Shown here in pieces: positions 1-31,858 of a stretch of DNA of 34,194 nucleotides. The notes below the pieces were generated by a model. The model saw only the letters and a list, made by a program, of their open reading frames with translations, ran no database searches and was not told where the DNA came from. The stretch comes from a virus (Duplodnaviria > Heunggongvirae > Uroviricota > Caudoviricetes). Within the stretch, counting starts at the first letter, position 1; the number at the start of each line of letters is the position of its first letter. The stretch lies in the IMG/VR virus record IMGVR_UViG_2541047826_000010; one strand, written 5' to 3'. Made by a program: the position numbers and the translations under genes.

Positions 1-1064
<1,064 letters not shown>

Positions 1065-1875: not shown

Positions 1876-1876
1876 A

Positions 1877-2083
1877 TCATCTCCTTTTTTTCAGTCTGTC
1901 GGCAACAATGTCGGTTGCAGCTGGCAGGGTGACTGGCCAGAACAACATGACGGCGGTCATGTACAGGATGTAATGCGCGGTGTCGTAGTGCCTGCCATAG
2001 CCCAGGGAACGATGAAGTCTTGCGCTGCATGATCCTGCGTACATATACCAGAAAAGAAAACAGACAATGGTTTCAGTAGTCAT
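1877..2083 (-). CDS. small hydrophobic membrane protein (hypothetical)
   Basis: Internal ATG at 2083 of ORF 1877..2239, preceded by GGGGAGG. The 68-aa product has two hydrophobic segments (IVCFLFWYMYAG, ILYMTAVMLFWPVTL). Confidence 0.5.
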   Translation of the reverse strand: MTTETIVCFLFWYMYAGSCSARLHRSLGYGRHYDTAHYILYMTAVMLFWPVTLPAATDIVADRLKKRR

Positions 2084-2303
2084 TCTGAATACCTCCCCAT
2101 TCGATATGAATATTACGGGCAGCAATGACAGGGTCGTTATTCCACCATGCACCTGACATGTATTTTTCAACCTGTTCGCGTCCGGCAATAACACCAATTG
2201 TGATCCCCGGCCTGACGTTCTTAAAAAAGGCGCGGGCAAAAAGGTATCTGGCAGATATTCGGCAGGCTTTTAATTTCCGGCTGTTACCTGATAGCGTAAT
2301 CAT
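2073..2303 (-). CDS. hypothetical early protein
   Basis: 76 aa. Its start shares an ATGA overlap with the stop of the upstream DUF2786-like gene (2300-2303). I recognise no family. Confidence 0.5.
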   Translation of the reverse strand: MITLSGNSRKLKACRISARYLFARAFFKNVRPGITIGVIAGREQVEKYMSGAWWNNDPVIAARNIHIEWGGIQNDY

Positions 2304-2983
2304 CTGGCCTCCAGTTTCTGTTGTTCCTGCCCACTGACCGGGCGGTGCAGTCTGACGTTCTGCCCTTCACGAAACCCCGCATAGCGCGAGGCGTCGCCAT
2401 TGCGGCTTCTTCCCGGTTTACGCGCCCTGGTGGTTTGCGTTTGCGGGTATTTATGTTCCAGCCACTGTTGCATCAGTTCACGCTCATCATCGGTCAGGGC
2501 AAAGGACTGTATTTCACTGATAACGGCCAGTACCCAGCCTTCAGCAAACTGGTTTCCACGGCTGGTACGGGTGGCGTTTTTTATTCTTTTGTTCTGTGCG
2601 CTGATATACTGCTGACGCGCCTTTTTCAGTTGGCGGACCAGCACTTCCCAGGTGTATGCAGCCAGTGCCGCTCGTTCCCGGTTACCGTAGAACCCCACAG
2701 ACGGATGCGTGCCGGGGTGAATGATGGAGTTAACACCAAATGCCTCGCGGATGATGTTCATCAGGCCCAGCATGTAGCGCGGTGGACGGAGACTGCCTGT
2801 CGGCCAGTAATGACTGATGGTTTCATCAATATCACTCATAGCAATGTCGGAATGTGTGATGCCGTGAACATCCATCAGTTTACGGGCTCGGCGCAGTGCC
2901 AGAGCGGCCTCGTGCGGGTTGCCGGATGCGGCCAGCGCCAGCAACTTTTTCAGTTTCTCAATGTGTTTATTCTGGTCTGTCAT
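2300..2983 (-). CDS. DUF2786-like early protein
   Basis: The N-terminus IEKLKKLLALAASGNPHEAALALRRARKLM matches the DUF2786 signature common in phages and plasmids. I chose the start at 2983 because it forms an ATGA overlap with the stop of the upstream gene (2980-2983). Confidence 0.7.
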   Translation of the reverse strand: MTDQNKHIEKLKKLLALAASGNPHEAALALRRARKLMDVHGITHSDIAMSDIDETISHYWPTGSLRPPRYMLGLMNIIREAFGVNSIIHPGTHPSVGFYGNRERAALAAYTWEVLVRQLKKARQQYISAQNKRIKNATRTSRGNQFAEGWVLAVISEIQSFALTDDERELMQQWLEHKYPQTQTTRARKPGRSRNGDASRYAGFREGQNVRLHRPVSGQEQQKLEAR

Positions 2984-6083: not shown

Positions 6084-7853
6084 TCAGTTGCCGTTAACAA
6101 TGCTGATAACACTGCTGCTGGCCGGTGTGGTCAGCGTGGCCATGACTTCATCCAGTGCGGCTTCCGGTACGCCGTCCGGGTACTGTGCCGTTAACTGGCG
6201 GTAATGTTCCGGCGTCCAGGTAAGGCCGTCGGCGCTGAACTTATCGCGCAGGGCTTTCGCGGCCTCCACATGAGTCATGGGACGTTGTTCAGTGCGCGGC
6301 CCGCGTACGTCAGAGGCCTGACCACGCTTCGGCATATAGGCCGGAAGTGTGGTGTCGTCGATATGTTTATACGGGTCAAGCCGCCCGCCGAACGGCAGCG
6401 CCTTCGCCTTGCGTGCGGCGGCTGCATCTGCGGCGTTGTCTGTACCGGTAACCAGCGCTTCGGTTTCTTTTGCCGCCATCTGTGCCGGGGTTTCCGGCAG
6501 GGCTTTGTAACTTTCGCCAAATACCGCCGCGCCTTCAGCAAAGCCAAACTCGTTCTTTCTGACCTCTTCGACCAGGAAGAACGTCTCGTGGCCGTCCTCA
6601 CCGGTCAGAACCACCTGTGCCACATCGCTGCGCCATGGGTTACGGGTAATCATCAGTTTTTCACCAACCAGTACGCCCGGTACCGTTGATACGTCAAATT
6701 CAGTGCCCCGGAACGAGACACGAAGTTTTGGCGTGACTTTGCGGAGTTCTGGTGCCGCCACAGCCAGTTCATGACATACCTCAACGGAAGGCGCTTTTTT
6801 CAGCTGCTCAGCAGTAATCTTCAGCCAGATATCCGTGCGGGTTTTACCGTGGCGGCTGTGAACAGCCGTGGCGTTAAAGTGGCTGCGCCATTTCGCGGCC
6901 AGCGCGTTGAGTTCTTCCAGACTGTGAACCGGCCGGAACTTCAGACCCGGCTCCAGCTTGCGTTCGATAATGTCTCGCGCCTTTTCCACCTGTCCGGTGG
7001 CGCGGGCGTTATGCGGCTTGTGCGCTATCAGGTCGATGCCCAGTGAGCGGCACATGTTTTTCGTCATACCCGCGGTGTTTGCCGAGCCGGGGTCGAGATA
7101 GAGTATTTTTGGCACGCCGTGCAGCACGTCTGCGCCGCCACGCTCCTGCATGGCGTTGATAAGCACAGAACACAGGTTCTCACCTGATTCCGCGCCCGTC
7201 ACATACTCAACGTAAATCCAGCCGCTGGCATGGTCGGTAATCTCGTAACTCCACACGCGGTCACTGGCGATACGGGCAAGGTTAGCGGGCTTGTTCTTGT
7301 AGAACTTCGCGCTGTCCATCACCTGCAGCCCTTTATGTCCATTGCTCAGGTAGTAAAGCGTGCAGAGTGAGGCGTCAATCTGCCAGACATGATTGGGGTG
7401 CAGACTGGCCACTTCGGTATGCGGTGCAGGAGCATCCAGTTGTTCCGGGTGCAGGCCATAGTTACGCAGAGCACGGCTGATGGCATCTTCAGACAACGGG
7501 AAAAACTCACCGGTGGTTTCATCTGTTCTGCCTGCGGTGATAAAGCCGTTAGCCCGCAGGGTTTCCACTGCATCTGCGATGGAATAGAGGCGCTTACCGT
7601 TCTTGCGGGTGGCCTCACGCAGTGTGGCAGATATCAGCGCGGCTTCGTCGCGGGTCAGGGCGCTGCGTCCGGCATCAGCGCGTTTTTTGCGTTTATCAGT
7701 CACAGAGACCTCCTTCAGCCTGCGCAGCAGAGTGGCGCGGGACATGCCAAGTTCAGCACAGGCAGCGTCGTATATTGCACCGCGTTTACCATGCCCCGCG
7801 TCACGTGCCGCGCGGGCGACATAAACCAGTCGTTCAGTCAGGGCAGCATTCAT
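6084..7853 (-). CDS. DDE (rve-type) transposase, MuA functional analogue
   Basis: 589 aa. N-terminal HTH. Catalytic-core signatures HVWQIDASL, YLDPGSANT and, 36 residues later, GQVEKA give the D, D, x35-36, E pattern. SD GGAGG. Confidence 0.9.
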   Translation of the reverse strand: MNAALTERLVYVARAARDAGHGKRGAIYDAACAELGMSRATLLRRLKEVSVTDKRKKRADAGRSALTRDEAALISATLREATRKNGKRLYSIADAVETLRANGFITAGRTDETTGEFFPLSEDAISRALRNYGLHPEQLDAPAPHTEVASLHPNHVWQIDASLCTLYYLSNGHKGLQVMDSAKFYKNKPANLARIASDRVWSYEITDHASGWIYVEYVTGAESGENLCSVLINAMQERGGADVLHGVPKILYLDPGSANTAGMTKNMCRSLGIDLIAHKPHNARATGQVEKARDIIERKLEPGLKFRPVHSLEELNALAAKWRSHFNATAVHSRHGKTRTDIWLKITAEQLKKAPSVEVCHELAVAAPELRKVTPKLRVSFRGTEFDVSTVPGVLVGEKLMITRNPWRSDVAQVVLTGEDGHETFFLVEEVRKNEFGFAEGAAVFGESYKALPETPAQMAAKETEALVTGTDNAADAAAARKAKALPFGGRLDPYKHIDDTTLPAYMPKRGQASDVRGPRTEQRPMTHVEAAKALRDKFSADGLTWTPEHYRQLTAQYPDGVPEAALDEVMATLTTPASSSVISIVNGN

Positions 7854-7856
7854 TGG

Positions 7857-8771
7857 TTATGCCTCCAGCCCGTTAATCTGTGGCGTCGGCTCAGTCAGCC
7901 ATGAAGGCGCGGCATTGCCTGTTGGCTCATCCGGCAGGTCAAATGTGGAGCGCAGGCTACGCGCTGTGCTTTCCAGTTGACAGACCAGGCCTGCCATGAA
8001 GTCTCTGGGGGTATCAATCATGTTTTCAGCACAATATGCGCACAGCGTCTCAAAAGCGCTGGACAGTCGAACGGCGATAGCAGATTCCGCCTCAACCGCT
8101 AATGCTGTCACTTCCGCCCGCAGCTTCTTAACCTCTTCATCAGGCTCAGGCGGCTGAATACGGGATTTCTTCTCCAGTCTGGTGGAGAGTGAGTCTATTT
8201 TTTCATTTTTGTCAGCGAGTACGCGCTGTTGTGCTGCGTTGGTTTCGCGCGCTTCGCGCAGGGCCTGACGCAATTCACGTACTGACATGCGATCAACGTC
8301 GTCAAGCGTCAGGCCGGCAACTGTGCCGCCGTCGGCCAATTCATCAAGTTCTTCATTATCCAGAACCATCAGGTCGTACAGTTTGGCTTTCCCCAAAACG
8401 CTCAACGTTGAGCGTTTTGTTGGCTCATCACCTTCTCCCAAAAACTTCATACTGGCTTGCATCATGCGGCGAGCAACTTGTGGTGCAAGTCCGAGTTCAT
8501 TTTCTAAAATGTTTGTAAAATCACCGTGTGGCTCATTTTCTTTTAAGATGATCAGCCGCTTACCCGCTTCCAGCATAGATTCAGCACTCTGCGCCATATA
8601 AAAACGTGCTTCGTGAACAATGCGATCACGTTCATAAGGCAGTCCATCACCAAACTGCTGCATAATTTCCATGCGATGCTGTGTCATAGCGTTCAAATTG
8701 ACATTGATGTTATCTGACAGCGGAACCTCAACATTCAGTTCAGTGTTAACGGGTGATTTGGTGCGTCCCAT
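7857..8771 (-). CDS. DUF3102-like early protein (coiled-coil)
   Basis: 304 aa. The N-terminal region resembles the DUF3102 proteins found just upstream of transposases in Mu-like phages. The central part is a long coiled coil. SD AAGGAG. Confidence 0.65.
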   Translation of the reverse strand: MGRTKSPVNTELNVEVPLSDNINVNLNAMTQHRMEIMQQFGDGLPYERDRIVHEARFYMAQSAESMLEAGKRLIILKENEPHGDFTNILENELGLAPQVARRMMQASMKFLGEGDEPTKRSTLSVLGKAKLYDLMVLDNEELDELADGGTVAGLTLDDVDRMSVRELRQALREARETNAAQQRVLADKNEKIDSLSTRLEKKSRIQPPEPDEEVKKLRAEVTALAVEAESAIAVRLSSAFETLCAYCAENMIDTPRDFMAGLVCQLESTARSLRSTFDLPDEPTGNAAPSWLTEPTPQINGLEA

Positions 8772-8781
8772 TGATTACTCC

Positions 8782-9090
8782 TTACAAACGACTACCTGAA
8801 ATAACTCGTTGGTTGATTTCGTTAATACGATCCTGTGCACGCGCCATCTCGTGACTGTGAGCCATGGCGATCTGTAGTAACTGGATTCCCGGTGCGAAAC
8901 GTCCGTTCTCTAATTTCATGGCCAGTCCCTCTTCAATAAGGGTATTAAGTGCTCGATTGATATTCGCCGGGGACTCCCCCAGGGCTGATGCCAGTTCACC
9001 GTTAGAAACACCGTTCAGAGCATGACCGCGTAGAGCTTTGAGTACACGTAGGATGCGGGTCCCAGAACTGGAAATATTTACTTTACTCAT
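8782..9090 (-). CDS. stand-alone IclR-type winged-HTH protein
   Basis: Internal ATG at 9090 of ORF 8782..9153. The product begins MSKVNISSSGTRILRVLKALRGHALNGVSNGELASALGESPANINRALNTL, which is IclR N-terminal HTH-like. There is no effector domain (102 aa in total). Confidence 0.6.
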   Translation of the reverse strand: MSKVNISSSGTRILRVLKALRGHALNGVSNGELASALGESPANINRALNTLIEEGLAMKLENGRFAPGIQLLQIAMAHSHEMARAQDRINEINQRVISGSRL

Positions 9091-9105
9091 GTCACATTTC
9101 CATTT

Positions 9106-9139
9106 TTGCAATATGTGATAACCTGTTGCATATGTGGAA
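9106..9139. repeat. two direct copies of TTGCA(A)TATGTG (minus-strand CACATAT core), candidate secondary operator
   Basis: TTGCAATATGTG lies at 9106-9117 and TTGCATATGTG at 9126-9136. The 10-mer ATATGTGATA (9111-9120) recurs exactly at 9368-9377 in the promoter region. Confidence 0.4.
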
Positions 9140-9142
9140 AAT

Positions 9143-9331
9143 TTATGCCGCATTTGACGTGGGTTTTAATCCCAGTTTTACGGCAATTTCATGGGCTTTG
9201 CCGTAACGAGCTTTGGTCTGTCCATTGAGAACACGATAGACCTCATTGCGGCTGTAGCCGTGTTCTTCGGCCCAGCGGGTAAACGTGATACCACGCTGAC
9301 GGAAGAGATTTTTAACTTGTTCGGAAGTCAT
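9143..9331 (-). CDS. Ner/Cro-like small HTH regulator, first gene of the early operon
   Basis: 62 aa. HTH FTRWAEEHGYSRNEVYRVLNG. SD AAGGAG. Divergent from the repressor gene. Confidence 0.65.
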   Translation of the reverse strand: MTSEQVKNLFRQRGITFTRWAEEHGYSRNEVYRVLNGQTKARYGKAHEIAVKLGLKPTSNAA

Positions 9332-9367
9332 TGTTGTCTCCTTTGTTGATGCAATGATGTTTGTTTT

Positions 9368-9377
9368 ATATGTGATA
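9368..9377. repeat. third copy of ATATGTGATA, overlapping the predicted early-transcript start
   Basis: Exact 10-mer repeat of 9111-9120, just downstream of the predicted -10 element of the early promoter. Confidence 0.4.
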
Positions 9378-9378
9378 G

Positions 9379-9407
9379 ATTATGAGAACTATTGTTCTCA
9401 TTGTCAA
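9379..9407 (-). promoter_or_regulatory. early promoter (Pe analogue): TTGACA-17 nt-CATAAT on the minus strand
   Basis: The minus strand reads TTGACA (plus-strand coordinates 9402-9407), a 17-nt spacer, then CATAAT (9379-9384). It lies about 45 nt upstream of the Ner-like ATG at 9331. Confidence 0.6.
9382..9401. promoter_or_regulatory. perfect palindromic operator candidate ATGAGAAC-TATT-GTTCTCAT
   Basis: 8-bp arms with a 4-bp spacer, read directly from the sequence. It fills the spacer and part of the -10 of the predicted early promoter. Confidence 0.55.
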
Positions 9408-9417
9408 TGAGGTTTAT

Positions 9418-9843
9418 GTGAATTTTGATTCTCTTTGCGCGTCGCGGTTCAAAGCTGAGCGTTCGCGGTTATCACTCAAGCAGGCTGAAGTAGCAGCCCT
9501 TTGTGGCGTTTCAAGAGAAATGTGGGGGAAATATGAACGAGGGGTTGCTGTTCCCGGAGGTGAGTTACTTGCAGCCTTTGCAAGAATTGGGGCCAATGTA
9601 CAGTTCATTCTTACCGGGGAGTCATCAGGTATAACTTTATCACGTGATGAAATGGAGTTACTGCAGCACTACCGGCAGGCACCATTACAGGTCAAAGGTT
9701 CAGTTTTGTCGGCCTTGACTACTGGCTCCTCCAGAGAACGGGCGGAACAGGTTATTCATGGAGATGTTCTGGGGAATGTTATCAAAGGTAACGTAACCAT
9801 AGGAACAGGTGGAATAATGAACAAAAATACCAAGAGAAGATGA
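9418..9843 (+). CDS. XRE/Cro-C1-type prophage repressor (no S24 peptidase domain)
   Basis: HTH LSLKQAEVAALCGVSREMWGKYERG ... NVQFILTGE. I prefer the GTG at 9418, which follows GAGG by 5 nt. The ATG at 9382 lies inside the operator palindrome. The C-terminal tail carries HGDVLGNVIKGNVTIGTGG. Confidence 0.8.
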   Translation: MNFDSLCASRFKAERSRLSLKQAEVAALCGVSREMWGKYERGVAVPGGELLAAFARIGANVQFILTGESSGITLSRDEMELLQHYRQAPLQVKGSVLSALTTGSSRERAEQVIHGDVLGNVIKGNVTIGTGGIMNKNTKRR

Positions 9844-10826
9844 GTAAAGAGAAGCAAACAGTTAACGGGGATGTGGGTAACGTTGTCAGCGGTGATGTTA
9901 CCATTCATAACTATTCTGCTGACATACTTCCTTCGGCCCAGCAACCAATTTCGTTGCTGCAAAAACGCGATTTACACAGATTGATGGATGAATTGGTTGA
10001 TCTGGGGGAAAGTAAGCGCGAGCTATGGATGACGATCCACACGAAACTTAATACCAAAACAGTTAATGAAATGACTGCGGCTGATTATCATGGTGCGGTT
10101 GAGATCCTTCAGAGATATGCACAACAGATCCAGAATATGAAGGACTGTAATCTTCTGGTCAGCAAAATAATGGCGCTTACTGACCCTGGGTATCGTCTTG
10201 ACCGTGACAGATACTGTCTGAAGCATTTCGGTACAACCCATCTTAAAGGCCTAGACAAAGAGCAGTTGCAGGCTGTGTTTGGTTATTTTGATGATCTGCT
10301 GAATATTCGTGATGAGAGTAAAACTCTATCACCTCCATCGGAAAGCGGTGCAAAATCAGTCGCAACTGTACCAACCAGAAGCCGGAAGCCTCATGTAGTA
10401 GTGTTGGGGGGAGTGTTAGTTCTTGTAGCAATATTTTTCGTGGGAATGATTGTGTTCGCTGGTAAATGGGGAAATGCCAAAGCAGTAGCTTCTACTGAAA
10501 CCAGCGTTTTTAACATTAAAACCAACGATAAAATAATAGAAGATTCCATCCCCGCACTGCGCAGCATGTTTCCAGGGTTAAATAAGTACTCAGATGATTT
10601 CCATTCGGTTTCAAGCTACAAGCAAAAAACGGGCTGGCATACCCTTAAATTTACTGTATCAGCAAAGGCATCCGTCCCCGAAAATTATAGTGTTAAGGGC
10701 AAGGTTTGTTACATTAACATAAGCCCTGATGGTAGTTATGCTCGGGTTTTGACTGCTCCATGTCGTTCACTGCTACTTGATCAGCAAAGCACTCCTGACA
10801 GTAAATACCGTTTTATTCTTAAATAG
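9840..10826 (+). CDS. bitopic membrane protein of unknown function, translationally coupled to the repressor
   Basis: 328 aa. ATGA overlap with the repressor stop (9840-9843). The N-terminus carries NGDVGNVVSGDVTIHN. A single TM helix spans about aa 185-208 (HVVVLGGVLVLVAIFFVGMIVFAG) and is preceded by RSRKPH. The C-terminal domain of about 120 aa is predicted periplasmic. GC is low. Confidence 0.7.
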   Translation: MSKEKQTVNGDVGNVVSGDVTIHNYSADILPSAQQPISLLQKRDLHRLMDELVDLGESKRELWMTIHTKLNTKTVNEMTAADYHGAVEILQRYAQQIQNMKDCNLLVSKIMALTDPGYRLDRDRYCLKHFGTTHLKGLDKEQLQAVFGYFDDLLNIRDESKTLSPPSESGAKSVATVPTRSRKPHVVVLGGVLVLVAIFFVGMIVFAGKWGNAKAVASTETSVFNIKTNDKIIEDSIPALRSMFPGLNKYSDDFHSVSSYKQKTGWHTLKFTVSAKASVPENYSVKGKVCYINISPDGSYARVLTAPCRSLLLDQQSTPDSKYRFILK

Positions 10827-10916
10827 AAAATAACAGCTGAATTACCATGGGATCAGAAAAAAGACAAAGGCGGCATCATGCTGCGTTCTGAAATTTTAAT
10901 GTAAAAGGTGATGAAC

Positions 10917-11498
10917 ATGGCAGGGATTCAGGTTATCGCAGGAAGTTTTCCTAAAGGGTGGGCAAGCATGGGGTTCGGTACCATCGTGTTTGCCAAAAAA
11001 CCAAAACAAGGCTTTCCTGAAAATATTGTATTAAATCTGAAAGAAGAGCTTTTATCGATTGAACTTGCGGATAGTGAAGAGGAAAGCCGTATAGGTAAGG
11101 CGGCAGGCGCAGGTTTGCTTGGTGGATTAATCTTTGGTGGTGCAGGGTTGGTCATTGGAGGTTTGCTTGGTGCGGCGGACAAGACGAAAAAAACTATCAC
11201 TTTTAAGGCAATGTTTACGGGAAATAGGTTACTTCTGGCTAAAACAGATTCAAAAACTTTTGTAAAACTTCAGTCAATTGCTGCTGATAATGCCCATAAC
11301 GCATCTGTAATCAACATGAAGCAAACTAACAGGGGCGATGTTTCTTCTCGTAAACAACTAACAGAAAATCCACAGCAGCAAGACTTACCTGCGCCCGCTA
11401 CAACAGTAAAAATGACTGCCAAAGATAAGTTAGAATCGGCTCTTGGGCTGGGAATCATCGTTATAGCTGTTTGGGCAATAATACACTTCTTTTTTTAG
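10917..11498 (+). CDS. glycine-zipper membrane protein of unknown function
   Basis: The ATG at 10917 lies 6 nt after AAGGTG; alternative starts are 10908 and 10911. Glycine-zipper segment AAGAGLLGGLIFGGAGLVIGGLLGAA spans aa 61-87. A C-terminal TM anchor reads LGLGIIVIAVWAIIHFFF. Confidence 0.7.
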   Translation: MAGIQVIAGSFPKGWASMGFGTIVFAKKPKQGFPENIVLNLKEELLSIELADSEEESRIGKAAGAGLLGGLIFGGAGLVIGGLLGAADKTKKTITFKAMFTGNRLLLAKTDSKTFVKLQSIAADNAHNASVINMKQTNRGDVSSRKQLTENPQQQDLPAPATTVKMTAKDKLESALGLGIIVIAVWAIIHFFF

Positions 11499-11500
11499 TG

Positions 11501-11524
11501 CAGCCCTTCAGGGCTGTTTCTGTT
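11501..11524 (+). terminator. intrinsic terminator closing the repressor operon
   Basis: CAGCCC-TTCA-GGGCTG stem-loop followed by TTTCTGTT, starting 3 nt after the stop codon. Confidence 0.7.
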
Positions 11525-11535
11525 CAGGAGGTATC

Positions 11536-12012
11536 TTAAGGATTATCCGGGGCGTTTTCCTGTTTGCCGTACTTCGGAGACGAACAACATTCTGTTGGCT
11601 GACCGGTGAGTTTACGTAACTCCTTCATGAGCAGCTCCTGATCGTAAACTGTCATCAGTGCCGCAATGGTGGCATGCAGTGCATCGGGCAGTATCCAGGG
11701 TTGCCGGCCCGTGGGGCATATAACATCCAGCAGCTCATTCGTCCGACAGATACGCTCCTCGCCGTATGACAACAGGCCCTGTCCCGTGTATTCCTCCAGC
11801 CTGATCACTGTGCCACCCCGTGGCTTCTGCCAGGTCGTCAGATCTTCGCCATTCATACGGCGCTCATTCTCCACGTCAGCAGCATCGACAATGACGCTGT
11901 TTCCGAGTTCCTGTTTCACCATCTCTTCTATCCGCGCCAGTACGTAACTTTTACCGCTGCCCACAGGACCGGACACAGTGACAGTGATGACCGGATTCAG
12001 TGTGTGCGTCAT
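11536..12012 (-). CDS. small P-loop NTPase (hypothetical), solitary minus-strand gene
   Basis: 158 aa. Walker A GPVGSGKS at aa 15-22. Possible Walker B VIVDAAD. SD GAGGAG. Convergent with the cassette and divergent from the late operon. Confidence 0.65.
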   Translation of the reverse strand: MTHTLNPVITVTVSGPVGSGKSYVLARIEEMVKQELGNSVIVDAADVENERRMNGEDLTTWQKPRGGTVIRLEEYTGQGLLSYGEERICRTNELLDVICPTGRQPWILPDALHATIAALMTVYDQELLMKELRKLTGQPTECCSSPKYGKQENAPDNP

Positions 12013-12073
12013 ATCGTATTCTCCTCTGTGAATAATTCATCGTTTATCCTGCACATCCCGTATCCCCGGCTCT

Positions 12074-12092
12074 CTTAACGCGCTTTAAAATC
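12074..12092 (+). promoter_or_regulatory. late-promoter motif copy 1 (CTTAA-N5-TTTAAAATC), upstream of the lysis genes
   Basis: One of four copies of YTTAA-N5-WTTAAWATC. The embedded -10-like hexamer TAAAAT lies at 12086-12091. There is no -35 match. It ends 50 nt before the holin ATG. Confidence 0.45.
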
Positions 12093-12142
12093 CTTCGCAC
12101 CCTGTATTTGTGATGCTGTCTCCACCAGATAAGGAGACACAC

Positions 12143-16641: not shown

Positions 16642-18137
16642 TGGCGAGGGGTATCTGGGTTTCACCCGATGAATTTGTTGCTTTTTCTGAGCCTCAGAAA
16701 TCACTGACCGCGCAGATTGCCTCCCGCAGCCGCGCGATCGACTTTTACGGACTGGGCATGTATCTGCCCAATCCTGATCCCATTCTCAAGGCTCAGGGAC
16801 GGGATATCCGTATCTACCGCGAACTGCGCACCGACCCGCTGGTTGGGGGCTGTATCCGCAGACGTAAAGCAGCGCTCAAATCACTGGAGCGTGGACTGGA
16901 GCGCGGTCACGCTTCTGCCCGGGTCTTCCGTTTCATCCGCGACATGCTCGACGATCTGGATCTGTCCCGCATCATCGGTGAGATGAGTGATGCCGTGCTC
17001 TACGGGTATCAGCCCTGTGAAATCATGTGGGGCCGTTCGGTCAGGGCGTGGGCAGTGACGGATATTGTCGGCAAACCGCCTGAGTGGTTTCAGTTTGATA
17101 CGGACAACTGCCTGCGCTTCCGGGCGCGTGATGCGGGTGTGGAGGGTGAGCTGCTGTCACCGTCAAAATTCGTGGTGCCGGCACAGGATGCCTCGTATGA
17201 CAATCCTTACGGTTTCCCGGACCTGTCCATGTGCTTCTGGCCGGTCGCCTTCAAGAAAGGCGGGATGAAATTCTGGCTCCGCTTTGCCGAAAAGTTTGGC
17301 TCCCCGTGGGTGATCGGTAAGCACCCGAGGGGTGCAAATGATGCAGAGATTGAAAAACTGCTGGACTCCATGGAGCAGATGGTGGAGGACGCGGTGGCCA
17401 CCATCCCCGATGACAGCAGCATCGAACTCAAAGCCGCGGATGGTAAGGCGGACAGCAGCGAGGTATTCCGCGAGCTGATCACACTGTCACGCAGTGAGAT
17501 CTCCATTGCATTACTTGGTCAGAATCAGACCACGGAAGCGAACAGTAACAAGGCCTCTGCACAGGCCGGGCTGGAGGTAACGGCTGATATCCGCGATGCG
17601 GATGCGGACATCATTCAGGCAGCAGTGAATCAGGTTATCAGAACGGTGGTCACCCTGAACTTCGGCGATGTGCCGTGTCCGGTCTGGGCCATGTGGGAAC
17701 AGGAGACCATTGATGACACCCGCGCCACCCGCGACGAAAAACTCACCCGGGCGGGTCTGCGTCTGACCCCGCAATACTTTAAGCGTGAGTACCAACTGCA
17801 GGACGGCGATATTGACGAGACATCACCGTCGGAACGCCAGAATAACATGCTGCCGCTGTCATTTGCCGAGGCGATTGATGCCGATATTCAGGCTCAGCAG
17901 CAGCTTGACGACGCGCTGGACATTCTGATGAACGGAGGTGTGTTAAATGGCACGCTGGAACCCGTCCTGGCACCTCTGTTTAAGCGGGTCGAAAACGGGG
18001 TTAACCCGACTGAGCTGCTGGGCGAACTGGCGGAGCTCTACCCTCAGATGAACACGGACGATCTGCAGGAACGGCTGGCCCGTATTCTCTTTGTGGCAAA
18101 TATCCGGGGACGTCTGCATGAGCGTGACAACGGCTGA
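16641..18137 (+). CDS. portal protein (Mu gp29 / DUF935-like)
   Basis: 498 aa. Follows the terminase with a TGATG overlap. Precedes the MuF-like gene. Confidence 0.85.
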   Translation: MARGIWVSPDEFVAFSEPQKSLTAQIASRSRAIDFYGLGMYLPNPDPILKAQGRDIRIYRELRTDPLVGGCIRRRKAALKSLERGLERGHASARVFRFIRDMLDDLDLSRIIGEMSDAVLYGYQPCEIMWGRSVRAWAVTDIVGKPPEWFQFDTDNCLRFRARDAGVEGELLSPSKFVVPAQDASYDNPYGFPDLSMCFWPVAFKKGGMKFWLRFAEKFGSPWVIGKHPRGANDAEIEKLLDSMEQMVEDAVATIPDDSSIELKAADGKADSSEVFRELITLSRSEISIALLGQNQTTEANSNKASAQAGLEVTADIRDADADIIQAAVNQVIRTVVTLNFGDVPCPVWAMWEQETIDDTRATRDEKLTRAGLRLTPQYFKREYQLQDGDIDETSPSERQNNMLPLSFAEAIDADIQAQQQLDDALDILMNGGVLNGTLEPVLAPLFKRVENGVNPTELLGELAELYPQMNTDDLQERLARILFVANIRGRLHERDNG

Positions 18138-18941: not shown

Positions 18942-19400
18942 ATGGCTTCCGATAACCTGGTCAGTATCACCATTAACGATAAATCCCTGCGCCGGAGCCT
19001 CCGTGCGCTGGATCTTGCTGCCACAGACCTGGAGCCCGCGATGCGCAAAATCGCCGGAACCCTGCTGGCGGAAACACAGTTTAACTTTCTTGATGAGGGG
19101 CGTCCGGGGTGGATCCCCTCGCTGGCAGCGGAAGAACGTGACGGGCAGACACTGCAGGATACCGGGCGTCTGATGGGGTCAGTATCAACCGACCATGACG
19201 ACCGGCAGGCTGTTGTGGGGACCAACGTTGTTTACGGTGCCATTCACCAGTTCGGGGGTAAAACGGGGCGTAATGAGTCTGTTGAACTTCCGGCCCGCCC
19301 GTTCCTGCCGGTGACGGGGGATGGAGAACTACAGCCTGAAGTGGTAATCCCCATCCTCGATACCATTGTCCGCCATCTTGAATCAGCGGCCCGTCGCTGA
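18942..19400 (+). CDS. virion morphogenesis protein (Mu G family)
   Basis: 152 aa. NVVYGAIHQFGG...ARPFL is typical of Mu G-like proteins. Confidence 0.8.
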   Translation: MASDNLVSITINDKSLRRSLRALDLAATDLEPAMRKIAGTLLAETQFNFLDEGRPGWIPSLAAEERDGQTLQDTGRLMGSVSTDHDDRQAVVGTNVVYGAIHQFGGKTGRNESVELPARPFLPVTGDGELQPEVVIPILDTIVRHLESAARR

Positions 19401-19443
19401 GTTTTCTCTCTTCAGGCGGGTGATTTATCATTGCCAGCGAATG

Positions 19444-19487
19444 AGGGGCTGTATTACCTTTATAAAGGCTTTACAGCCTCTGTTTTA
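19444..19487 (+). terminator. compound hairpin plus T-tract after gene G
   Basis: GGCTGTA (19447-19453) pairs with TACAGCC (19472-19478). These arms enclose the perfect palindrome CCTTTATAAAGG. TCTGTTTTA follows. Confidence 0.5.
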
Positions 19488-19540
19488 TAACCGCCTCCGG
19501 TTCACCGCATTGCTTTCCCTGTCCTTCTCCCCTGATGTTT

Positions 19541-19559
19541 TCTAAAGCAGATTAAAATC
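19541..19559 (+). promoter_or_regulatory. late-promoter motif copy 2 (TCTAA-N5-ATTAAAATC), upstream of the head protease gene
   Basis: Same spacing as the other copies. -10-like TAAAAT lies at 19553-19558. It ends 55 nt before the ATG at 19615. Confidence 0.4.
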
Positions 19560-19614
19560 GCCGGGCCTGCATTTCTCACAAACTGTCTCCGACAACATAA
19601 CGCGGGACAGCAAA

Positions 19615-20730
19615 ATGTCAGCCATTCACATTTTTAAAGCCGGTACTCATACCGATATGCACGGCAAAAAACTGCCGTTCACGCCAGACGATCTTGCCGC
19701 CTGCGTGAAAGCCTATGACCCGTCCGTCCATGAAGCACCACTCGTGATTGGTCATCCCAGAACGGAAGACCCGGCGTGGGGCTGGGTGAAAGCCCTGTCG
19801 CTCAGCGGCGTCGATCTGATGGCAGAGCCTGCCCAGCTGGACCCGCAGTTTGCTGAGATGGTCACCGACGGACGATTCAAAAAAGTGTCCGCCTCTTTCT
19901 ACCTCCCGGATTCACCGTCCAATCCGAAGCCCGGCGTGCTCTACCTTCGCCATGTGGGCTTTCTCGGGGCACAGCCACCTTCCGTCAAGGGGCTGAAACA
20001 GGTGTCCTTCAGTGAGCAGGAAGAAGGTGTGGTGGAGTTCGCCGACTGGCAGGCCATCACGAATGCCTCCCTGTGGGGAAAGCTGCGCGATTTTCTGATC
20101 GCCCGCTTCAGTCTGGACGAGGCAGAAAAAGTCCTGCCGGAATGGCAGCTCAACAGTCTGCGCGAAGAGGCGTACCGCGACACACTGTCGCAGGATGCAG
20201 CAGGTGCACAATTCAGTGAGACAGGCCCGGGGCCGTCTTCCGCAAGTAACGAGGAATCATCGATGACAAAAGAAGAGATTGAAGCCCTTCAGGAGGAGAA
20301 CCGCCGCCTGAAGCAGCAGGCTGCTGATCGCGATGCGCGTGATGCACAGGTCAGACAGGAGCAACTGCATAAGGACAATGTGGCCTTTGCAGAAAAACTG
20401 GTCGCAGAGGGCCGTCTGGCTCCCCGCGCCTCCTCCGTGGTGGTTGCCCTGCTGGATGCCGTCGCCGGTGGCGACAAGCCGGTGGAGTTTGCTGAGGGGG
20501 AAAGCCGCACACCGCTGGCCACCGCCTTTCGTTCATTGCTCTCCGACGGGGAGCCGGTGATGAATTTCGCCGAACAGGCCACAAAAGAGCGTGTCGGCGA
20601 CACGGTGAAGGTGGATGTGGCAGAGTTTGCGGAAGCCGATCCTGAGCGTCTGGCCCTGCATCAGAAAGCAGTGGCCCTGTCCAAAAAAGAAGGCATCAGC
20701 TATGAGGCTGCTGTCGCACGCTGCCTGTAA
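19615..20730 (+). CDS. head protease / scaffold protein (Mu gene I-like)
   Basis: 371 aa. N-terminus IFKAGTHTDMHGKKLPFTPDDLAACVKAYDP...PLVIGHP. The C-terminal third is a charged coiled coil. Lies immediately upstream of the capsid gene. Confidence 0.75.
   Translation: MSAIHIFKAGTHTDMHGKKLPFTPDDLAACVKAYDPSVHEAPLVIGHPRTEDPAWGWVKALSLSGVDLMAEPAQLDPQFAEMVTDGRFKKVSASFYLPDSPSNPKPGVLYLRHVGFLGAQPPSVKGLKQVSFSEQEEGVVEFADWQAITNASLWGKLRDFLIARFSLDEAEKVLPEWQLNSLREEAYRDTLSQDAAGAQFSETGPGPSSASNEESSMTKEEIEALQEENRRLKQQAADRDARDAQVRQEQLHKDNVAFAEKLVAEGRLAPRASSVVVALLDAVAGGDKPVEFAEGESRTPLATAFRSLLSDGEPVMNFAEQATKERVGDTVKVDVAEFAEADPERLALHQKAVALSKKEGISYEAAVARCL
20263..20730 (+). CDS. possible nested in-frame scaffold product (Mu Z-like)
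   Basis: In-frame ATG at 20263 (codon 217), preceded by GAGGA 8 nt upstream. It begins the coiled-coil part, MTKEEIEALQEENRRLKQQ. Confidence 0.35.
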   Translation: MTKEEIEALQEENRRLKQQAADRDARDAQVRQEQLHKDNVAFAEKLVAEGRLAPRASSVVVALLDAVAGGDKPVEFAEGESRTPLATAFRSLLSDGEPVMNFAEQATKERVGDTVKVDVAEFAEADPERLALHQKAVALSKKEGISYEAAVARCL

Positions 20731-20744
20731 TTTAAGGAGAGAGC

Positions 20745-21698
20745 ATGTCTGATTACTTAAAAGGTAAACGTGTCGTTGATCCGGTACTGACCAGTATCGC
20801 CCGTGGCTATAAAAATGCCGCATTCATCGGCGAACGTATTTTCCCCGTCGTGCTGACGGACAAGGAAGGCGTGCGTGTACCGACCTTCGGGAAAACCGCC
20901 TTTGTGGAATATGACACCGAGCGTGCCGTCGGGGCGGACAGCAATGTTCTGGTCCGTGAAAAAACAGGCACGCTGGACCTGGTGCTGGGTGAACACGATC
21001 TGGCTGCGCCGGTGGACTATCGCGAGCAGGCGGAGTCCATGTTTAACGAAGAGAGCAAGGCCATCCGTCGCGCCACGAATGGCGTGAACCTGCGCCGTGA
21101 ACTTATCGCTGCCCGTCTGGCTCAGGATGAAAAGGTCTACCGTACCGGGCACGTCAAAAAACTGACAGCCAGTGATCGCTGGGCCGGTGGTAAGGGGGAC
21201 CCCATCGGGGTGATTGAAGCCGGTATGGAAGCGGTCCGTACGGCCACGGGGCTGCGTCCTAACCTGATGACCATGGGGGCCGGCGTGATGGCGCTGCTGA
21301 AGTTCCACCCGGCGATTCAGGCCGCTATCGGAGCCAACGAACGCAAGCGCATCACCACAGAAATCCTGCAGGACCTCTTTCAGATCGAAGAGATCGTCAT
21401 CGGTGCCCCGGTCTCCCTGCCGTCCATGAAAGCGGCAATGGATAAGAACAGCGTGCCGGCGGATATCTGGGGAGACAATCTGATGCTGCACTATGTCGGC
21501 AAACCGCAGCCGGGGGCGGACAGCGCGGACGAGAACGAGCCGTCCTTCGGCTACACCCTGCGTCGTAAGGGGATGCCTGTTGCCGACAAATACGACGGAG
21601 CCGGTGGCAAGGTGAAGTACTGCCGTTATACCGATATCTACAAAGTCGCCGTGGTTGGTGGCGATGCCGGGTATCTCATTACCGGTATCAGTAAATAA
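20745..21698 (+). CDS. major capsid protein
   Basis: 317 aa. Strong SD AAGGAG. Position after the protease/scaffold gene and before the decoration-like gene. I cannot assign a family by eye. Confidence 0.8.
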   Translation: MSDYLKGKRVVDPVLTSIARGYKNAAFIGERIFPVVLTDKEGVRVPTFGKTAFVEYDTERAVGADSNVLVREKTGTLDLVLGEHDLAAPVDYREQAESMFNEESKAIRRATNGVNLRRELIAARLAQDEKVYRTGHVKKLTASDRWAGGKGDPIGVIEAGMEAVRTATGLRPNLMTMGAGVMALLKFHPAIQAAIGANERKRITTEILQDLFQIEEIVIGAPVSLPSMKAAMDKNSVPADIWGDNLMLHYVGKPQPGADSADENEPSFGYTLRRKGMPVADKYDGAGGKVKYCRYTDIYKVAVVGGDAGYLITGISK

Positions 21699-25437: not shown

Positions 25438-25462
25438 AGGGGCTCCGGCCCCTTCTTCTTAA
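25438..25462 (+). terminator. hairpin AGGGGC-TCCG-GCCCCT followed by a T-rich run
   Basis: 6-bp GC-rich stem and 4-nt loop, then TCTTCTTAATCTCCTTT. Begins 7 nt after the stop at 25431. Confidence 0.5.
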
Positions 25463-25476
25463 TCTCCTTTAATATC
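25458..25476 (+). promoter_or_regulatory. late-promoter motif copy 3 (CTTAA-N5-TTTAATATC), upstream of the tail chaperone gene
   Basis: -10-like TAATAT lies at 25470-25475. The 22-nt window 25455-25476 matches 31806-31827 at 20 of 22 positions. It ends 52 nt before the ATG at 25529. Confidence 0.45.
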
Positions 25477-25528
25477 CGTCACGCGCTTCTCCCGACATAC
25501 TGCCCTGAACTTACACAGGAGCACAATC

Positions 25529-26021: not shown

Positions 26022-28973
26022 ATGTCGGGACAGTTTTCAGTCGGCGTTGTTATCGGCGGGATGATTGGTAGCACATTCCGTTCTGCAATGAGCGGTACCC
26101 GCCGTGCGCTTGATTCCCTGAGCGATACCTCACGCCGCCTGCAGGAACGTCAGAACGCTTTAACCCGTGCAACAGAACGTTATGGTCAACTGGGTTCTTC
26201 CCGGATGCAGCATCTCAACAGCGAGCTGCTGCGGGTAAGCCGCACCATGGAGCAAATTGAGCGCCAGCAGCGCCGTCTGTCAGCGGCATCCGCTACCAGT
26301 GATGCGCTGAAAGCTAACCGCATGGCGCTGTATGGTCAGGGGATTGAAGCGTATGGCATGGCACAGACTGTTTATCATACGGTTTCCCCTGCCGTTCAGC
26401 AGTCCATGTCTTTTCAGGACAAAATGATTGATATGTCGATCACCGCAAAATATGACAATAAAACGCGGGATGCACTTGCCGGACAGATAAAAGGCTGGGC
26501 GCTTAAATACAATCAGTATCAGGATGAGCTGCAGGAGGCGGTGGGTTCACTCATCAGCGACAATATTGATAATGTGTCAGATATCGGTTTTCTGATGCCG
26601 GATATTGCCCGCGCGGCAACGGCAACACGCACGTCTGCTCAGGACTGGGCAAAAGTGGCCGCAGTCTGGCAAAACTCCCTGAAAGGTGCGGCCAGAGATT
26701 TTGGTGCCGTTCAGAATATTATGGCTTATGCCGGTGACCAGGGGTCATTTGAAATCCCGGATCAGGTCAAGTGGATGCAGTCCCTGGCCCCAATGATGGC
26801 GGGTATTGCCAGTGGAAAAGAGGCTGTTGCTGAAATCGGGGCCAGTCTCCAGATAGCAAAAATCGGTGCAGGTTCCACCGACGAAGCAGCCAATAATTTT
26901 AAAAACTTTCTTACCAAAATTTTTGCCCGCGATACTCAGAAACAGTTTGCTGATCTGGGTATTGATTTGCAGGGATCTATTGCGAGTTATAAAGCTGCGG
27001 GGATCTCTCCGATTGAAGGGATGTTGAGTGTTATAGAACGTTACCTCAATGCCAAAAGCCCCGAAGCGCTGGCCGGCTTCAAATCAGCCATGAAAATAAA
27101 GAATGATACGGCAAGAGATGAGGCACTTCAGGCTCTGGCGAAAAACTTTGGTCTGGGCGATATGTTCGCGGATATGCAGGTCATGGCATTTATCCGCCCG
27201 ATGCTGGCCAACATGGACAGATATCGAGAGATCCGTGCCGGTGCTCTCAGGGCTGCGGATAACGATTTGCTTGCCAGTGCTTATGATCAGCGGCTGAAAT
27301 CTCCCCTTGAAGCCACTAAAGCACTTATGGTCAGCAGTCGTGATCTGGCAATTACGCTGGGCGATCAATTAGCTCCATCTTTTATTTCTCTGACTCAGGA
27401 ACTGCTTCCACTCATTCAGGGGGCAAAACACTGGGTAGCGACTCACCCGCAATTTGTCAGTGGGGCTTTTAAGCTCATCAGTGCGCTCCTTGCGATTAAG
27501 ATAGCGACTGTTGGTCTCAAACTGGGGCTGAATCTCCTTATTTCCCCCTTTGTAAGTGTCTGGAAAAATGCTGTTTTACTTCGGGCCAACTGGCTTCGTC
27601 TGTCGCTCGCACTGGGGCAAGGCGGTAAGCTCCGCTGGCTGGTGACCGGATTTAGCGCCGTCGCCAAAGGAGCCAGAACACTGAGTGGCGTGCTCTCCGG
27701 GGGGCTGGTTCGCGGAATTATGCTCGCCGGACGTGCTGTTCTCTGGATTGGACGTGCGCTGATGATGAATCCCATCGGTCTCGTTATCACCGCTGTCGCG
27801 GCAGCAGCTTACCTTATCTACCGCAACTGGGGGGCAGTCAGTGGCTGGTTTAAACAGCGCTGGGCAGACATTCAGGAAGCCTTTAACGGCGGCATTGTGG
27901 GAATTGGTAAGTTGCTGATTAACTGGTCGCCGGCAGGCCTGCTCTATAAAGCCTTTGCGGCTGCGCTGAAATATTTCGGCGTTGCTCTGCCGGCAAAGTT
28001 CACCGACTTCGGTGGCCATCTTATCGACGGTCTGATTAACGGTATCAAAAACAAATGGGGGTCGCTCAAATCCAGTGTAACCGGAATGGGTGACAGCATC
28101 AGTAGCTGGTTTAAACAGTGCTGGGCTGACATTCAGGAAGCCTTTAACGGCGGTATCGCGGGAACTGGTAAGCTGCTGATTAACTGGTCGCCGGCAGGTC
28201 TGCTCTATAAAGCCTTTGCAGCTGCGCTGAAATATCTTGGTGTTGATCTGCCGGCAAAGTTCACCGACTTCGGTGGCCATCTTGTCGACGGTCTGATTAA
28301 CGGTATCAAAAACAAATGGGAGTCGCTCAAATCCAGTGTAACCGGAATGGGTGACAGCATCAGTGGCTGGTTCAGCGAAAAGCTGGGCATTCATTCGCCG
28401 AGCCGCGTGTTTATGGGCTTTGGTGACAATATCGCGCAGGGGGCCGCCATTGGCCTGCAGCGGACCACTCCGCTTGCAGCTCTGGCCGGGCAGCGAATGG
28501 CCAGTGAACTGCTCCCCAAAATGCCCGTGAGCATTCAGGGGCCAGAAATACGGGATAACACTTCAGGTGTTCGCTTCAGTATGCCGTTGCCCGATATCAA
28601 TGGGTTTATGTCGTCTGCTAAAAATGCGATCGGAGCCGTAATCAATAGTTTGTCTTCCATGCCCGCTATTCCGCTCTCCACCCGGGCATCGATTTTACCA
28701 GGGCAACGTCTGGCAAATGAGATGACACCGGATGTTCCCCGTATCCCCTCGCCTGAAATCCTGGCTGCCGGATATTCAGGCCGTGGTGCAGCTGCAACCG
28801 GCGGTGGAACGTCTGGTGGTATCCAGGTCAGCTTTAATCCTCAGTTTTTCCTCAATGGCAGGGAAACCACAGCGCCTGCCGGACTGACTGGCGCCCTGAA
28901 TATGAGCCTGCATGAGCTGGAAAAAATGCTGGAGCGTCTGCTGGCTCAGAAACAACGTAAGGAGTACCGCTGA
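26022..28973 (+). CDS. tail tape measure protein
   Basis: 983 aa. Position after the chaperone pair. Long helical and hydrophobic central region. SD GGAGG. Confidence 0.9.
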   Translation: MSGQFSVGVVIGGMIGSTFRSAMSGTRRALDSLSDTSRRLQERQNALTRATERYGQLGSSRMQHLNSELLRVSRTMEQIERQQRRLSAASATSDALKANRMALYGQGIEAYGMAQTVYHTVSPAVQQSMSFQDKMIDMSITAKYDNKTRDALAGQIKGWALKYNQYQDELQEAVGSLISDNIDNVSDIGFLMPDIARAATATRTSAQDWAKVAAVWQNSLKGAARDFGAVQNIMAYAGDQGSFEIPDQVKWMQSLAPMMAGIASGKEAVAEIGASLQIAKIGAGSTDEAANNFKNFLTKIFARDTQKQFADLGIDLQGSIASYKAAGISPIEGMLSVIERYLNAKSPEALAGFKSAMKIKNDTARDEALQALAKNFGLGDMFADMQVMAFIRPMLANMDRYREIRAGALRAADNDLLASAYDQRLKSPLEATKALMVSSRDLAITLGDQLAPSFISLTQELLPLIQGAKHWVATHPQFVSGAFKLISALLAIKIATVGLKLGLNLLISPFVSVWKNAVLLRANWLRLSLALGQGGKLRWLVTGFSAVAKGARTLSGVLSGGLVRGIMLAGRAVLWIGRALMMNPIGLVITAVAAAAYLIYRNWGAVSGWFKQRWADIQEAFNGGIVGIGKLLINWSPAGLLYKAFAAALKYFGVALPAKFTDFGGHLIDGLINGIKNKWGSLKSSVTGMGDSISSWFKQCWADIQEAFNGGIAGTGKLLINWSPAGLLYKAFAAALKYLGVDLPAKFTDFGGHLVDGLINGIKNKWESLKSSVTGMGDSISGWFSEKLGIHSPSRVFMGFGDNIAQGAAIGLQRTTPLAALAGQRMASELLPKMPVSIQGPEIRDNTSGVRFSMPLPDINGFMSSAKNAIGAVINSLSSMPAIPLSTRASILPGQRLANEMTPDVPRIPSPEILAAGYSGRGAAATGGGTSGGIQVSFNPQFFLNGRETTAPAGLTGALNMSLHELEKMLERLLAQKQRKEYR
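27846..28367 (+). repeat. in-frame tandem duplication, 2 x 261 bp (87 aa), inside the tape-measure gene
   Basis: Copy 1 is 27846-28106 and copy 2 is 28107-28367. My hand alignment gives about 16 mismatches in 261 nt and 8 of 87 aa differences. Both copies begin WFKQ(R/C)WADIQEAFNGG. Confidence 0.9.
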
Positions 28974-31804: not shown

Positions 31805-31808
31805 GCTT

Positions 31809-31827
31809 CTTAAACGCCTTTAATATC
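31809..31827 (+). promoter_or_regulatory. late-promoter motif copy 4 (CTTAA-N5-TTTAATATC), upstream of the baseplate genes
   Basis: -10-like TAATAT lies at 31821-31826. It ends 31 nt before the ATG at 31859. Confidence 0.45.
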
Positions 31828-31840
31828 AGCGTTCCCGCAC

Positions 31841-31858
31841 GGGGGCAATACTGCCCCC
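31841..31858 (+). promoter_or_regulatory. GC-rich stem-loop GGGGGCA-ATAC-TGCCCCC directly abutting the gpW start codon
   Basis: Perfect 7-bp stem and 4-nt loop. The ATG at 31859 follows the last paired base. The only purine-rich SD candidate (GGGGG) lies inside the stem. Confidence 0.6.

Follow-up and report, generated by a model that had tools for sequence, protein, structure and literature searches.

A probable late-operon junction with one deeply conserved palindrome in the central G-I gap of a BcepMu-type transposable prophage of Escherichia coli

In phage Mu, a C-dependent late promoter, P_I, lies in the gap between genes G and I, and the strong gyrase site (SGS) is placed between the same two genes, near the centre of the genome. 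In the Mu model, gyrase binds there processively, so that a supercoiled loop is extruded with the site at its tip and the prophage ends are joined for replicative transposition. In Pseudomonas Mu-like phages, anti-CRISPR genes were reportedly found in an accessory region by Bondy-Denomy et al. in 2013. A central gyrase site is proven only in Mu and one close relative. According to a review, of all the substitutes that Pato placed at the centre of Mu, none functioned except the SGS from Sp18, a closely related prophage (PMC10052514). Here we describe the corresponding gap, positions 19401-19614, of a BcepMu-type transposable prophage of E. coli carried by IMG/VR record IMGVR_UViG_2541047826_000010, a stretch of 34,194 nucleotides that was analysed over its whole length and is called the window below. 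A preliminary description, made from the sequence alone, had proposed an analogue of the Mu SGS in this gap.

The best-supported reading is that the prophage is of a known phage type and that its gap is an ordinary late-operon junction, plus one deeply conserved palindrome, and we consider it likely that the gap is the boundary of two late transcription units. With the end of gene G at 19400 and the start of the next gene at 19615, the gap measures 214 bp rather than the 215 bp first given. According to our reading of the open reading frame (ORF) table, it is the largest gap between plus-strand late genes, as had been noticed, the others being about 54-157 bp long, and no ORF of at least 60 amino acids lies wholly within it. 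The gene context is that of Mu, as the preliminary description had it, with a G homologue (PF05069) on one side and an I equivalent on the other. The product of the latter has no Pfam match, and it is 49% (tblastn) or 51% (protein alignment) identical to BcepMu gp32, which is annotated as 'head maturation protease; Mu I equivalent'. Coordinates of the features are given in Table 1.

Table 1. Features of the G-I gap and of the loci connected with it in the window
Feature	Coordinates	Strand	Basis or remark
Mor/C-family transcription activator gene, presumed activator of the four late promoters	1065-1454	-	homologous ORF of the ST131 copy
Late-promoter copy 1, before lysis genes	12073-12118	+	motif
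Gene G homologue (virion morphogenesis/tail completion), last of the upstream late block	18942-19400	+	PF05069, E = 9.7e-23; 'Mup31, G' in PhiKM
Small stem-loop TCAGCGG..TCGCTGA over the G stop codon, then T-rich run GTTTTCTCTCTT; weak, terminator-like	19383-19412	+	terminator scan
Conserved non-coding block CAGGCGGGTGATTTATCATTGCCAGC	19412-19440		identity to relatives
Imperfect 38-bp palindrome/compound hairpin	19444-19481		arms 19444-19462 and 19463-19481, 79% complementary; block identity 94% in four lineages
Perfect palindrome CCTTTATAAAGG	19457-19468		one copy only in the window
U-rich tail TGTTTTATA, with the hairpin a candidate intrinsic terminator for the preceding lysis/head block	19482-19490	+	terminator scan
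Variable segment, accessory-gene insertion slot, empty in the window	19482-19537		low identity (33-57%; 25% in the most distant relative), indels, cargo of relatives
Promoter block	19538-19590		identity 71-79% in 7 of 8 relatives
Putative Mor-family activator binding site TTCTAAAGCAGATTAAAATC, late promoter of the I operon (copy 2)	19540-19559	+	one of four copies, identical geometry
-10-like hexamer CAAACT, 19 nt downstream of the activator site	19579-19584	+	spacing same in all four copies
5'-untranslated region (5'-UTR) hairpin CTGTCTC..GGGACAG, separated by 4 nt from the I start codon	19583-19610	+	fold and conservation
5'-UTR block	19591-19614		identity 79-95% in 7 of 8 relatives
Gene I homologue (head maturation protease/scaffold), first of the downstream late block	19615-20730	+	homology to BcepMu gp32
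Late-promoter copy 3, before tail assembly genes	25457-25502	+	motif
Late-promoter copy 4, before baseplate W/J genes	31808-31853	+	motif

Two sets of relatives were used for comparison. In an alignment of nine enterobacterial lineages, the identity of the eight relatives to the window was scored for each block, with the third codon positions of G (36-78% identity) as the yardstick. The second set comprised 70 viral contigs holding both G and I, which were found by I-protein homology alone and contained 63 distinct gaps. The median gap length in the 70 contigs was 214 bp, and most gaps measured 180-255 bp. Against the yardstick, the hairpin block was 94% identical in four lineages whose G third codon positions are 48-78% identical to those of the window.

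The late promoter ahead of I was recognised by a motif, TTWAAWATC-N19-nAnRCTG, which occurs four times (at 12084, 19551, 25468 and 31819), always on the plus strand, in intergenic sequence and before a block of late genes. The chance expectation is about 0.05 matches, for a pattern that was itself derived from these four copies. The copy at 19551, one of the four with the 19-nt spacing, is the one that had been reported as copy 2, following the hairpin. The -10-like hexamers of the four copies are GATGCT, CAAACT, CATACT and AATACT, and no recognisable -35 was found in the copy 2 promoter. Within the aligned relatives ACTGTC is invariant, TAAAGCnGATTAAAA is conserved family-wide, and the motif stands 35-71 nt ahead of the I start across relatives. 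BcepMu has an identical 18-mer, TAAAGCCGATTAAAAGAC, before its holin gene and before gene 32 (I), and the presence of the same 18-mer before two late genes supports the reading of this sequence as an activator site of late promoters. The presumed activator gene lies near the left end of the prophage. Its counterpart in a complete prophage copy of an ST131 strain, described below, is annotated as 'Mor transcription activator family protein' in a region 98.6% identical to the window, and the BcepMu gp01 equivalent carries the same Mor-type annotation. We propose a late promoter that would do without a -35 and would instead use a Mor-family activator site 19 nt upstream of a weak -10. After induction, Mor would bind 19540-19559 and recruit the host RNA polymerase, and the head genes would be transcribed from about 19590; both the dependence on Mor and the start position are predictions.

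The compound hairpin, which begins 44 nt past the G stop, was confirmed at the coordinates given in the preliminary description. Its arms GGCTGTA (19447-19453) and TACAGCC (19472-19478) enclose the perfect palindrome, and the whole structure consists of an outer stem of 10 bp, a 3x3 internal loop, an inner stem of 4 bp and a UAUA loop. As RNA it folds at -19.6 kcal/mol (z = -4.5), and 0 of 200 shuffles folded as well. The T-tract described after it is indeed there, but it is short (TGTTTTAT, with TTTT only at 19483-19486). This tail reads UGUUUUAU in the window copy and UUUGGUU (TTTGGTT) in BcepMu, and a tail is also found in the L064 lineage. With the short U-run that follows the hairpin in the window lineage, the element probably ends or weakens upstream transcripts, which would originate at the lysis promoter near 12.1 kb.

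Four points weigh against a plain terminator-promoter junction as the full account of the gap. The U-tail is missing in Klebsiella-type and Symbiopectobacterium-type lineages, in which the hairpin or its core is retained. Distant relatives keep only a weak stem of 5-7 bp, with the core sequence unchanged. The conserved block 19412-19440 is accounted for by no part of the junction model; block 19401-19443, which contains it, shows 83-88% identity in Klebsiella-type lineages, compared with 63-78% at G third codon positions, and its GGCGGG(T/C)GATTTA is kept in the Symbiopectobacterium-type lineage too. Finally, termination alone does not explain the conservation of the palindrome core at the sequence level.

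This conservation reaches far. The core, TTTATAAAG(G/C), was present in 44 of the 63 distinct gaps, down to 46% I-protein identity, and always lay 49-92 nt past the G stop, with the exception of one locus with a cargo insertion. It was also found in BcepMu, phiE255 and Ralstonia phage YO107_2, and a two-element DNA pattern of palindrome and promoter matched 85 viral contigs. Terminators usually conserve structure and not loop sequence. Since the core is conserved as a sequence, while a plain terminator would conserve pairing, the palindrome likely has an additional sequence-specific reader or a DNA-structural role.

A stronger form of this idea makes the palindrome primarily a site in DNA, either bound by a protein dimer, be it a nucleoid protein of the host or a regulator of the phage, or acting as a cruciform-prone, highly flexible element, with the terminator-like hairpin as a secondary property. 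We regard it as a tentative possibility. It would suit the finding that the core persists in phages infecting both beta- and gamma-proteobacteria, while the stems on either side of it and the U-tail change. The core is made of CTTTA/TAAAG pentamers in alternation, and its dyad symmetry is upheld by a symmetric change of the sixth pair from the centre, which switches between C-G and G-C. An A/T-rich centre between G+C arms favours cruciform extrusion. In addition, by our own reading, TATAAAGGCTTTA agrees with 8 of the 9 positions that are specified in the IHF consensus, WATCAANNNNTTR; however, the fit misses a well-conserved C, and its TTR part is broken in the Symbiopectobacterium-type lineage. 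The outer-stem positions covary among 39 family members, the outer stem being absent in some lineages, but such covariation equally fits an RNA hairpin. A search of the window revealed no second copy of the palindrome in the prophage, and the palindrome resembles neither the late-promoter half-sites nor the end repeats, all of which speaks against this reading. No Rfam family matched, and the open literature searched held no mention of the palindrome sequence in phages.

The late-operon junction also accommodates the poorly conserved segment of about 55 bp between hairpin and promoter, which is a cargo slot, empty in the window. Enlarged gaps of 385-2256 bp with extra ORFs were found in 8 of the 70 relatives. 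In these loci the palindrome follows G by 73-75 nt (303 nt in one), and the late promoter, where found, precedes I by 36-59 nt. As the palindrome stays by G and the promoter stays by I, the cargo sits between the two, and this order of terminator, cargo and promoter is a classic arrangement. The cargo includes a HEPN/RES-domain protein of 431 amino acids, a small DUF2158 protein, several ORFs without Pfam match, one of which, encoding 270 amino acids, recurs in two contigs, and, from the translations of two ORFs, a probable insertion sequence. Positions of cargo in distant relatives are 1021-2316 (minus strand) in L175, 2130-2372 in L162, 1594-2403 in L160 and 315-2407 in L173. Neither an HTH domain, as expected of an aca-like partner, nor a PADLOC match was detected in the cargo of the eight relatives. 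The matching accessory-gene region of Pseudomonas Mu-like phages does hold anti-CRISPR genes (PMC4378225). The preliminary description had pointed to the gap between G and the protease gene as an insertion site for acr-aca operons and had called it empty here. Insertion at this site is borne out by the relatives, although their cargo is not of the acr-aca type, and the slot of the window is empty indeed, with no conserved ORF in the gap and the least conserved, indel-bearing segment at this place.

A small protein encoded in the gap itself was considered as another explanation. The candidates are a 59-amino-acid ORF with a TTG start at 19366-19545 and an equivalent of the 41-amino-acid hypothetical protein that is annotated at the homologous place in Klebsiella phage KP12. 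The former ORF exists in the window, but its 3' half falls in the least conserved block, where identity is 33-57% and indels change the length between lineages. It also overlaps the hairpin, has no Shine-Dalgarno-like sequence that we could see ahead of it, and has a RefSeq annotation in 0 of the 40 genomes listed. We therefore consider a coding function highly improbable.

Gyrase-site function was the central proposal of the preliminary description, and it could be set against a published sequence criterion. The E. coli gyrase motif of Sutormin et al., 130 bp in length, scores the strong sites of Mu, pSC101 and pBR322 top in their replicons, and the motif score is a weak predictor of cleavage in vivo, with r about 0.2 (PMC6379681). 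Matrices were rebuilt from 601 published cleavage coordinates, their published scores and the corresponding W3110 sequence, in which the coordinates fell on a G and a C at the cut, as they should. The rebuilt matrices are symmetric and approximate the published one, whose exact asymmetric form is unrecoverable by regression from fewer than some 1,000 sites. A ridge-fitted matrix reproduced the published scores with a cross-validated r of 0.88. As a positive control, the exact Mu cut (overhang 17876-17879) was found among more than 700 Mu loci, ranking 1st when a frequency matrix was made from the half of the sites with high signal, 3rd with the ridge fit and 10th when all sites were used. Matrices from fewer sites were rejected as too weak, the Mu control ranking 59th by position with 281 sites and 11th to 47th by locus with 424 sites.

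With the matrices that pass the Mu control, the best locus in 19330-19620 was 19362-19364, inside the end of G, at rank 68th to 79th, and the best locus within the gap, 19422, ranked 159th to 699th. The G-I region of BcepMu itself ranked 67th to 266th. The recurring site at the 3' end of G was dropped as a gyrase site, being not above background across 62 relatives (median p 0.2-0.37). Similarity of the gap to the Mu cleavage core was at chance level (shuffle p 0.08), and this also holds for block 19412-19440. Similarity to the whole Mu and Sp18 gaps was borderline (shuffle p 0.04-0.05) and fell outside the cleavage core, whereas the similarity between Mu and Sp18 was never equalled in 500 shuffles. 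The proposal thus found no support in motif score, the gap ranking far behind the Mu SGS. Because motif score predicts cleavage weakly, this result should be taken as absence of support and not as disproof.

Other properties of the gap agree better with a gyrase site like that of Mu, whether in the gap or in the 3' end of G plus the gap. The position is central in the window prophage, in BcepMu and in Mu, its neighbouring genes are those found in Mu, and the gap is kept at about 180-255 bp in most relatives, with conserved non-coding blocks beyond what the promoter accounts for. The 10-11 bp phasing of A/T over 19430-19492 reaches the 99.7th percentile in the window, comparable to the essential right arm of the Mu SGS at the 99.4th percentile in Mu; it reaches the 92nd in BcepMu, and the feature is not gyrase-specific. 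Phased A/T is also common upstream of promoters. Furthermore, a central site has been proposed for Pseudomonas phage Ab30 (PMC5977238). Against these stand the poor ranks, the chance similarity to the Mu core and the finding that in Mu itself only the Sp18 site could substitute. Position alone is no evidence. The sequence criterion that picks the Mu site passes over the window gap, and we judge such a gyrase site unlikely. Even less probable, in our estimate, is that the TAAAG/CTTTA array of the palindrome (19444-19481) is the BcepMu family's own central organiser, whether because it bends sharply or is prone to form a cruciform, or because a nucleoid protein or gyrase docks on it. If this were true, the organiser would pin the tip of the supercoiled loop and help the prophage ends to meet, doing the job of the Mu SGS via a different sequence and possibly a different protein.

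Several single matches were examined and set aside. GCGGGTGATTTAT (19417-19429) resembles the Mu core as printed in PMC6379681, and was rejected as chance (p = 0.08); the Mu reference reads GCGGCTG at this point, and with respect to G and I the match is on the other strand. In a fair alignment test of the Mu core, the top match was elsewhere, at 19553-19564 in the late promoter. CTTCAGGCGnGTG, common to the Sp18 gap, was unconvincing (p = 0.05). A transposase site in the gap, suggested by GATAAAT, was discarded as well, the 7-mer occurring 6 times in the prophage against an estimated 4.5 expected. In the prophage as a whole, the top sites of the rebuilt gyrase matrices were 21254-21287, 23609, 14316, 24185 and 28430, all within structural genes, and the pair at 21.3 kb lies at about 56% of the predicted prophage length. 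Compared with the Mu reference (L006, 17863-17892), the 133-bp SGS fragment of the PMC6379681 supplement differs by one base beside the cut (GCGGGTGATT vs GCGGCTGATT), and may be an up-mutant of the nuB type.

Central position could be determined from a complete copy of the prophage. Window bases 1-902 are E. coli chromosome and end between araH and otsB, about 100 bp short of the latter on its upstream side, and the prophage begins at base 903, in line with the 0.9-1.06 kb estimated earlier for the left end. Over the stretch tested, the prophage shares 99.8% identity with Escherichia phage PhiKM, a member of Bcepmuvirus. By Pfam, its genes include a transposase of the rve type with an AAA+ partner, a portal of the Mu type and homologues of F and G. 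The complete copy, found in ST131 strain 4993 between ycaL and aroA, is 37,044 bp long, and the gap lies at 51.3-51.9% of its length, which confirms the central location that had been predicted for the spacer. Assuming the same right arm, the window copy would measure about 36.5 kb, with its centre at about 19,175, which agrees with the earlier estimate of 19-20 kb, and the gap would start about 226 bp to the right of it. The G-I gap of BcepMu, 202 bp long, lies at 50.7-51.3% of 36,748 bp. In Mu, where G ends at 17859 and I starts at 18056, the annotated gyrase cut at 17879/80 corresponds to 48.7% of 36,717 bp.

The prophage is common in E. coli. Its G-I stretch was found in 637 of 5,426 complete genomes, with at least 99% identity in 593 of those, and none of the 5,426 has an insertion at the araH-otsB site of the window. 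The host flanks of the ST131 copy overlap by 7 bp, which is read as a target duplication. An insertion at araH-otsB that none of these genomes shares, compared with ycaL-aroA in the ST131 copy, fits recent transposition, and the insertion may disturb the otsBA promoter. The two copies differ in the early/immunity region (window 7842-11547), where identity is 82% over one stretch and some 2.2 kb (9384-11547) has no match in the ST131 copy, the latter being about 0.5 kb longer overall. The prophage family is thus mosaic around its repressor region.

The ends of the prophage carry repeated G(A/C)GATA(A/T)(A/T)T motifs (GAGATAAATGA, GAGATATTTATGG and, twice, GCGATAAATG) at 903-970 of the window and at 1105-1304 and 37949-38148 of the ST131 record (L003). 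Both BcepMu ends bear the same kind of repeat, and these are presumably the transposase-binding sites. A further repeat was seen in the tape-measure gene (27820-28372), where offset self-matches against the ST131 copy revealed an internal direct repeat of about 260-290 bp with 91-94% identity.

Two other structures lie at the edges of the gap. The small stem-loop over the G stop codon folds at only -8.8 kcal/mol (z = -1.5), and its sequence is strongly conserved in relatives. The 5'-UTR hairpin ahead of I folds at -10 kcal/mol (z = -3.6), with 0 of 200 shuffles as stable, and a T/C change in relatives retains pairing with G. In gene I itself, the opening 105 nt (19615-19719) show unusual conservation at third codon positions, 79-97% in the seven closer lineages and 55% in the most distant one, compared with 45-78% for the last part of G. 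The start of I may be under an additional constraint, for example from the structure of the mRNA, the initiation of translation or a recombination boundary.

Since the prophage is common in E. coli, including ST131, and has an isolated counterpart in PhiKM, it offers a practical system for the question of whether transposable phages other than Mu need a central gyrase site. One short, deeply conserved palindrome has been singled out as a target for mutation, and the map of late promoters and accessory slot should serve the annotation of other BcepMu-type prophages.

Compared with the described systems, the central intergenic segment of Pseudomonas phage Ab30, also a transposable phage, has been proposed to be SGS-like by position, as has the window gap, but the Ab30 candidate is based on experiments that showed a gap in self-insertion events, whereas the window gap is known from sequence. 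The acr-aca locus of D3112/JBD-type Pseudomonas phages ('RGP G') shares the accessory insertion point between G and the protease/scaffold gene; unlike that locus, the window slot is empty, and the cargo of its relatives comes without the partner gene or defence-database matches noted above.

With Mu, the gap shares its place between the same two genes near the genome centre, its length (196 bp in Mu, 214 bp in the window), its late promoter and a phased A/T-rich stretch, but it has neither an outstanding gyrase-motif score nor similarity to the cleavage core. The window phage also differs from Mu in its rve/Tn552-like DDE transposase, its AAA+ ExeA-like partner and an inverted early region. 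When set beside P_I and the end of the lys transcript of Mu, the promoter of the window phage is likewise predicted to depend on an activator: its -10 is weak, a -35 is lacking and a putative activator site lies upstream. Each phage has four late promoters, which in the window phage precede the lysis, head (I), tail-assembly and baseplate blocks, each has a Mor/C-family activator, and CAAACTG stands ahead of I in both by our reading of the Mu gap. In contrast, the activator site of the window phage is TTCTWAA-N5/6-TTWAAWATC, and one Mor/C homologue was found in it, compared with two (mor and C) in Mu.

The closest match is the gp31-gp32 region of BcepMu, and of phiE255 as well. Although the flanking proteins are 44-51% identical, the stem arms differ in a compensated manner, and block 19412-19440 is absent in BcepMu, this region is the direct counterpart of the window gap, with the same late-promoter motif, TAAAGCCGATTAAAAG, and the same core, TTTTATAAAGGCTTTAC, in a hairpin with a 13-bp stem.

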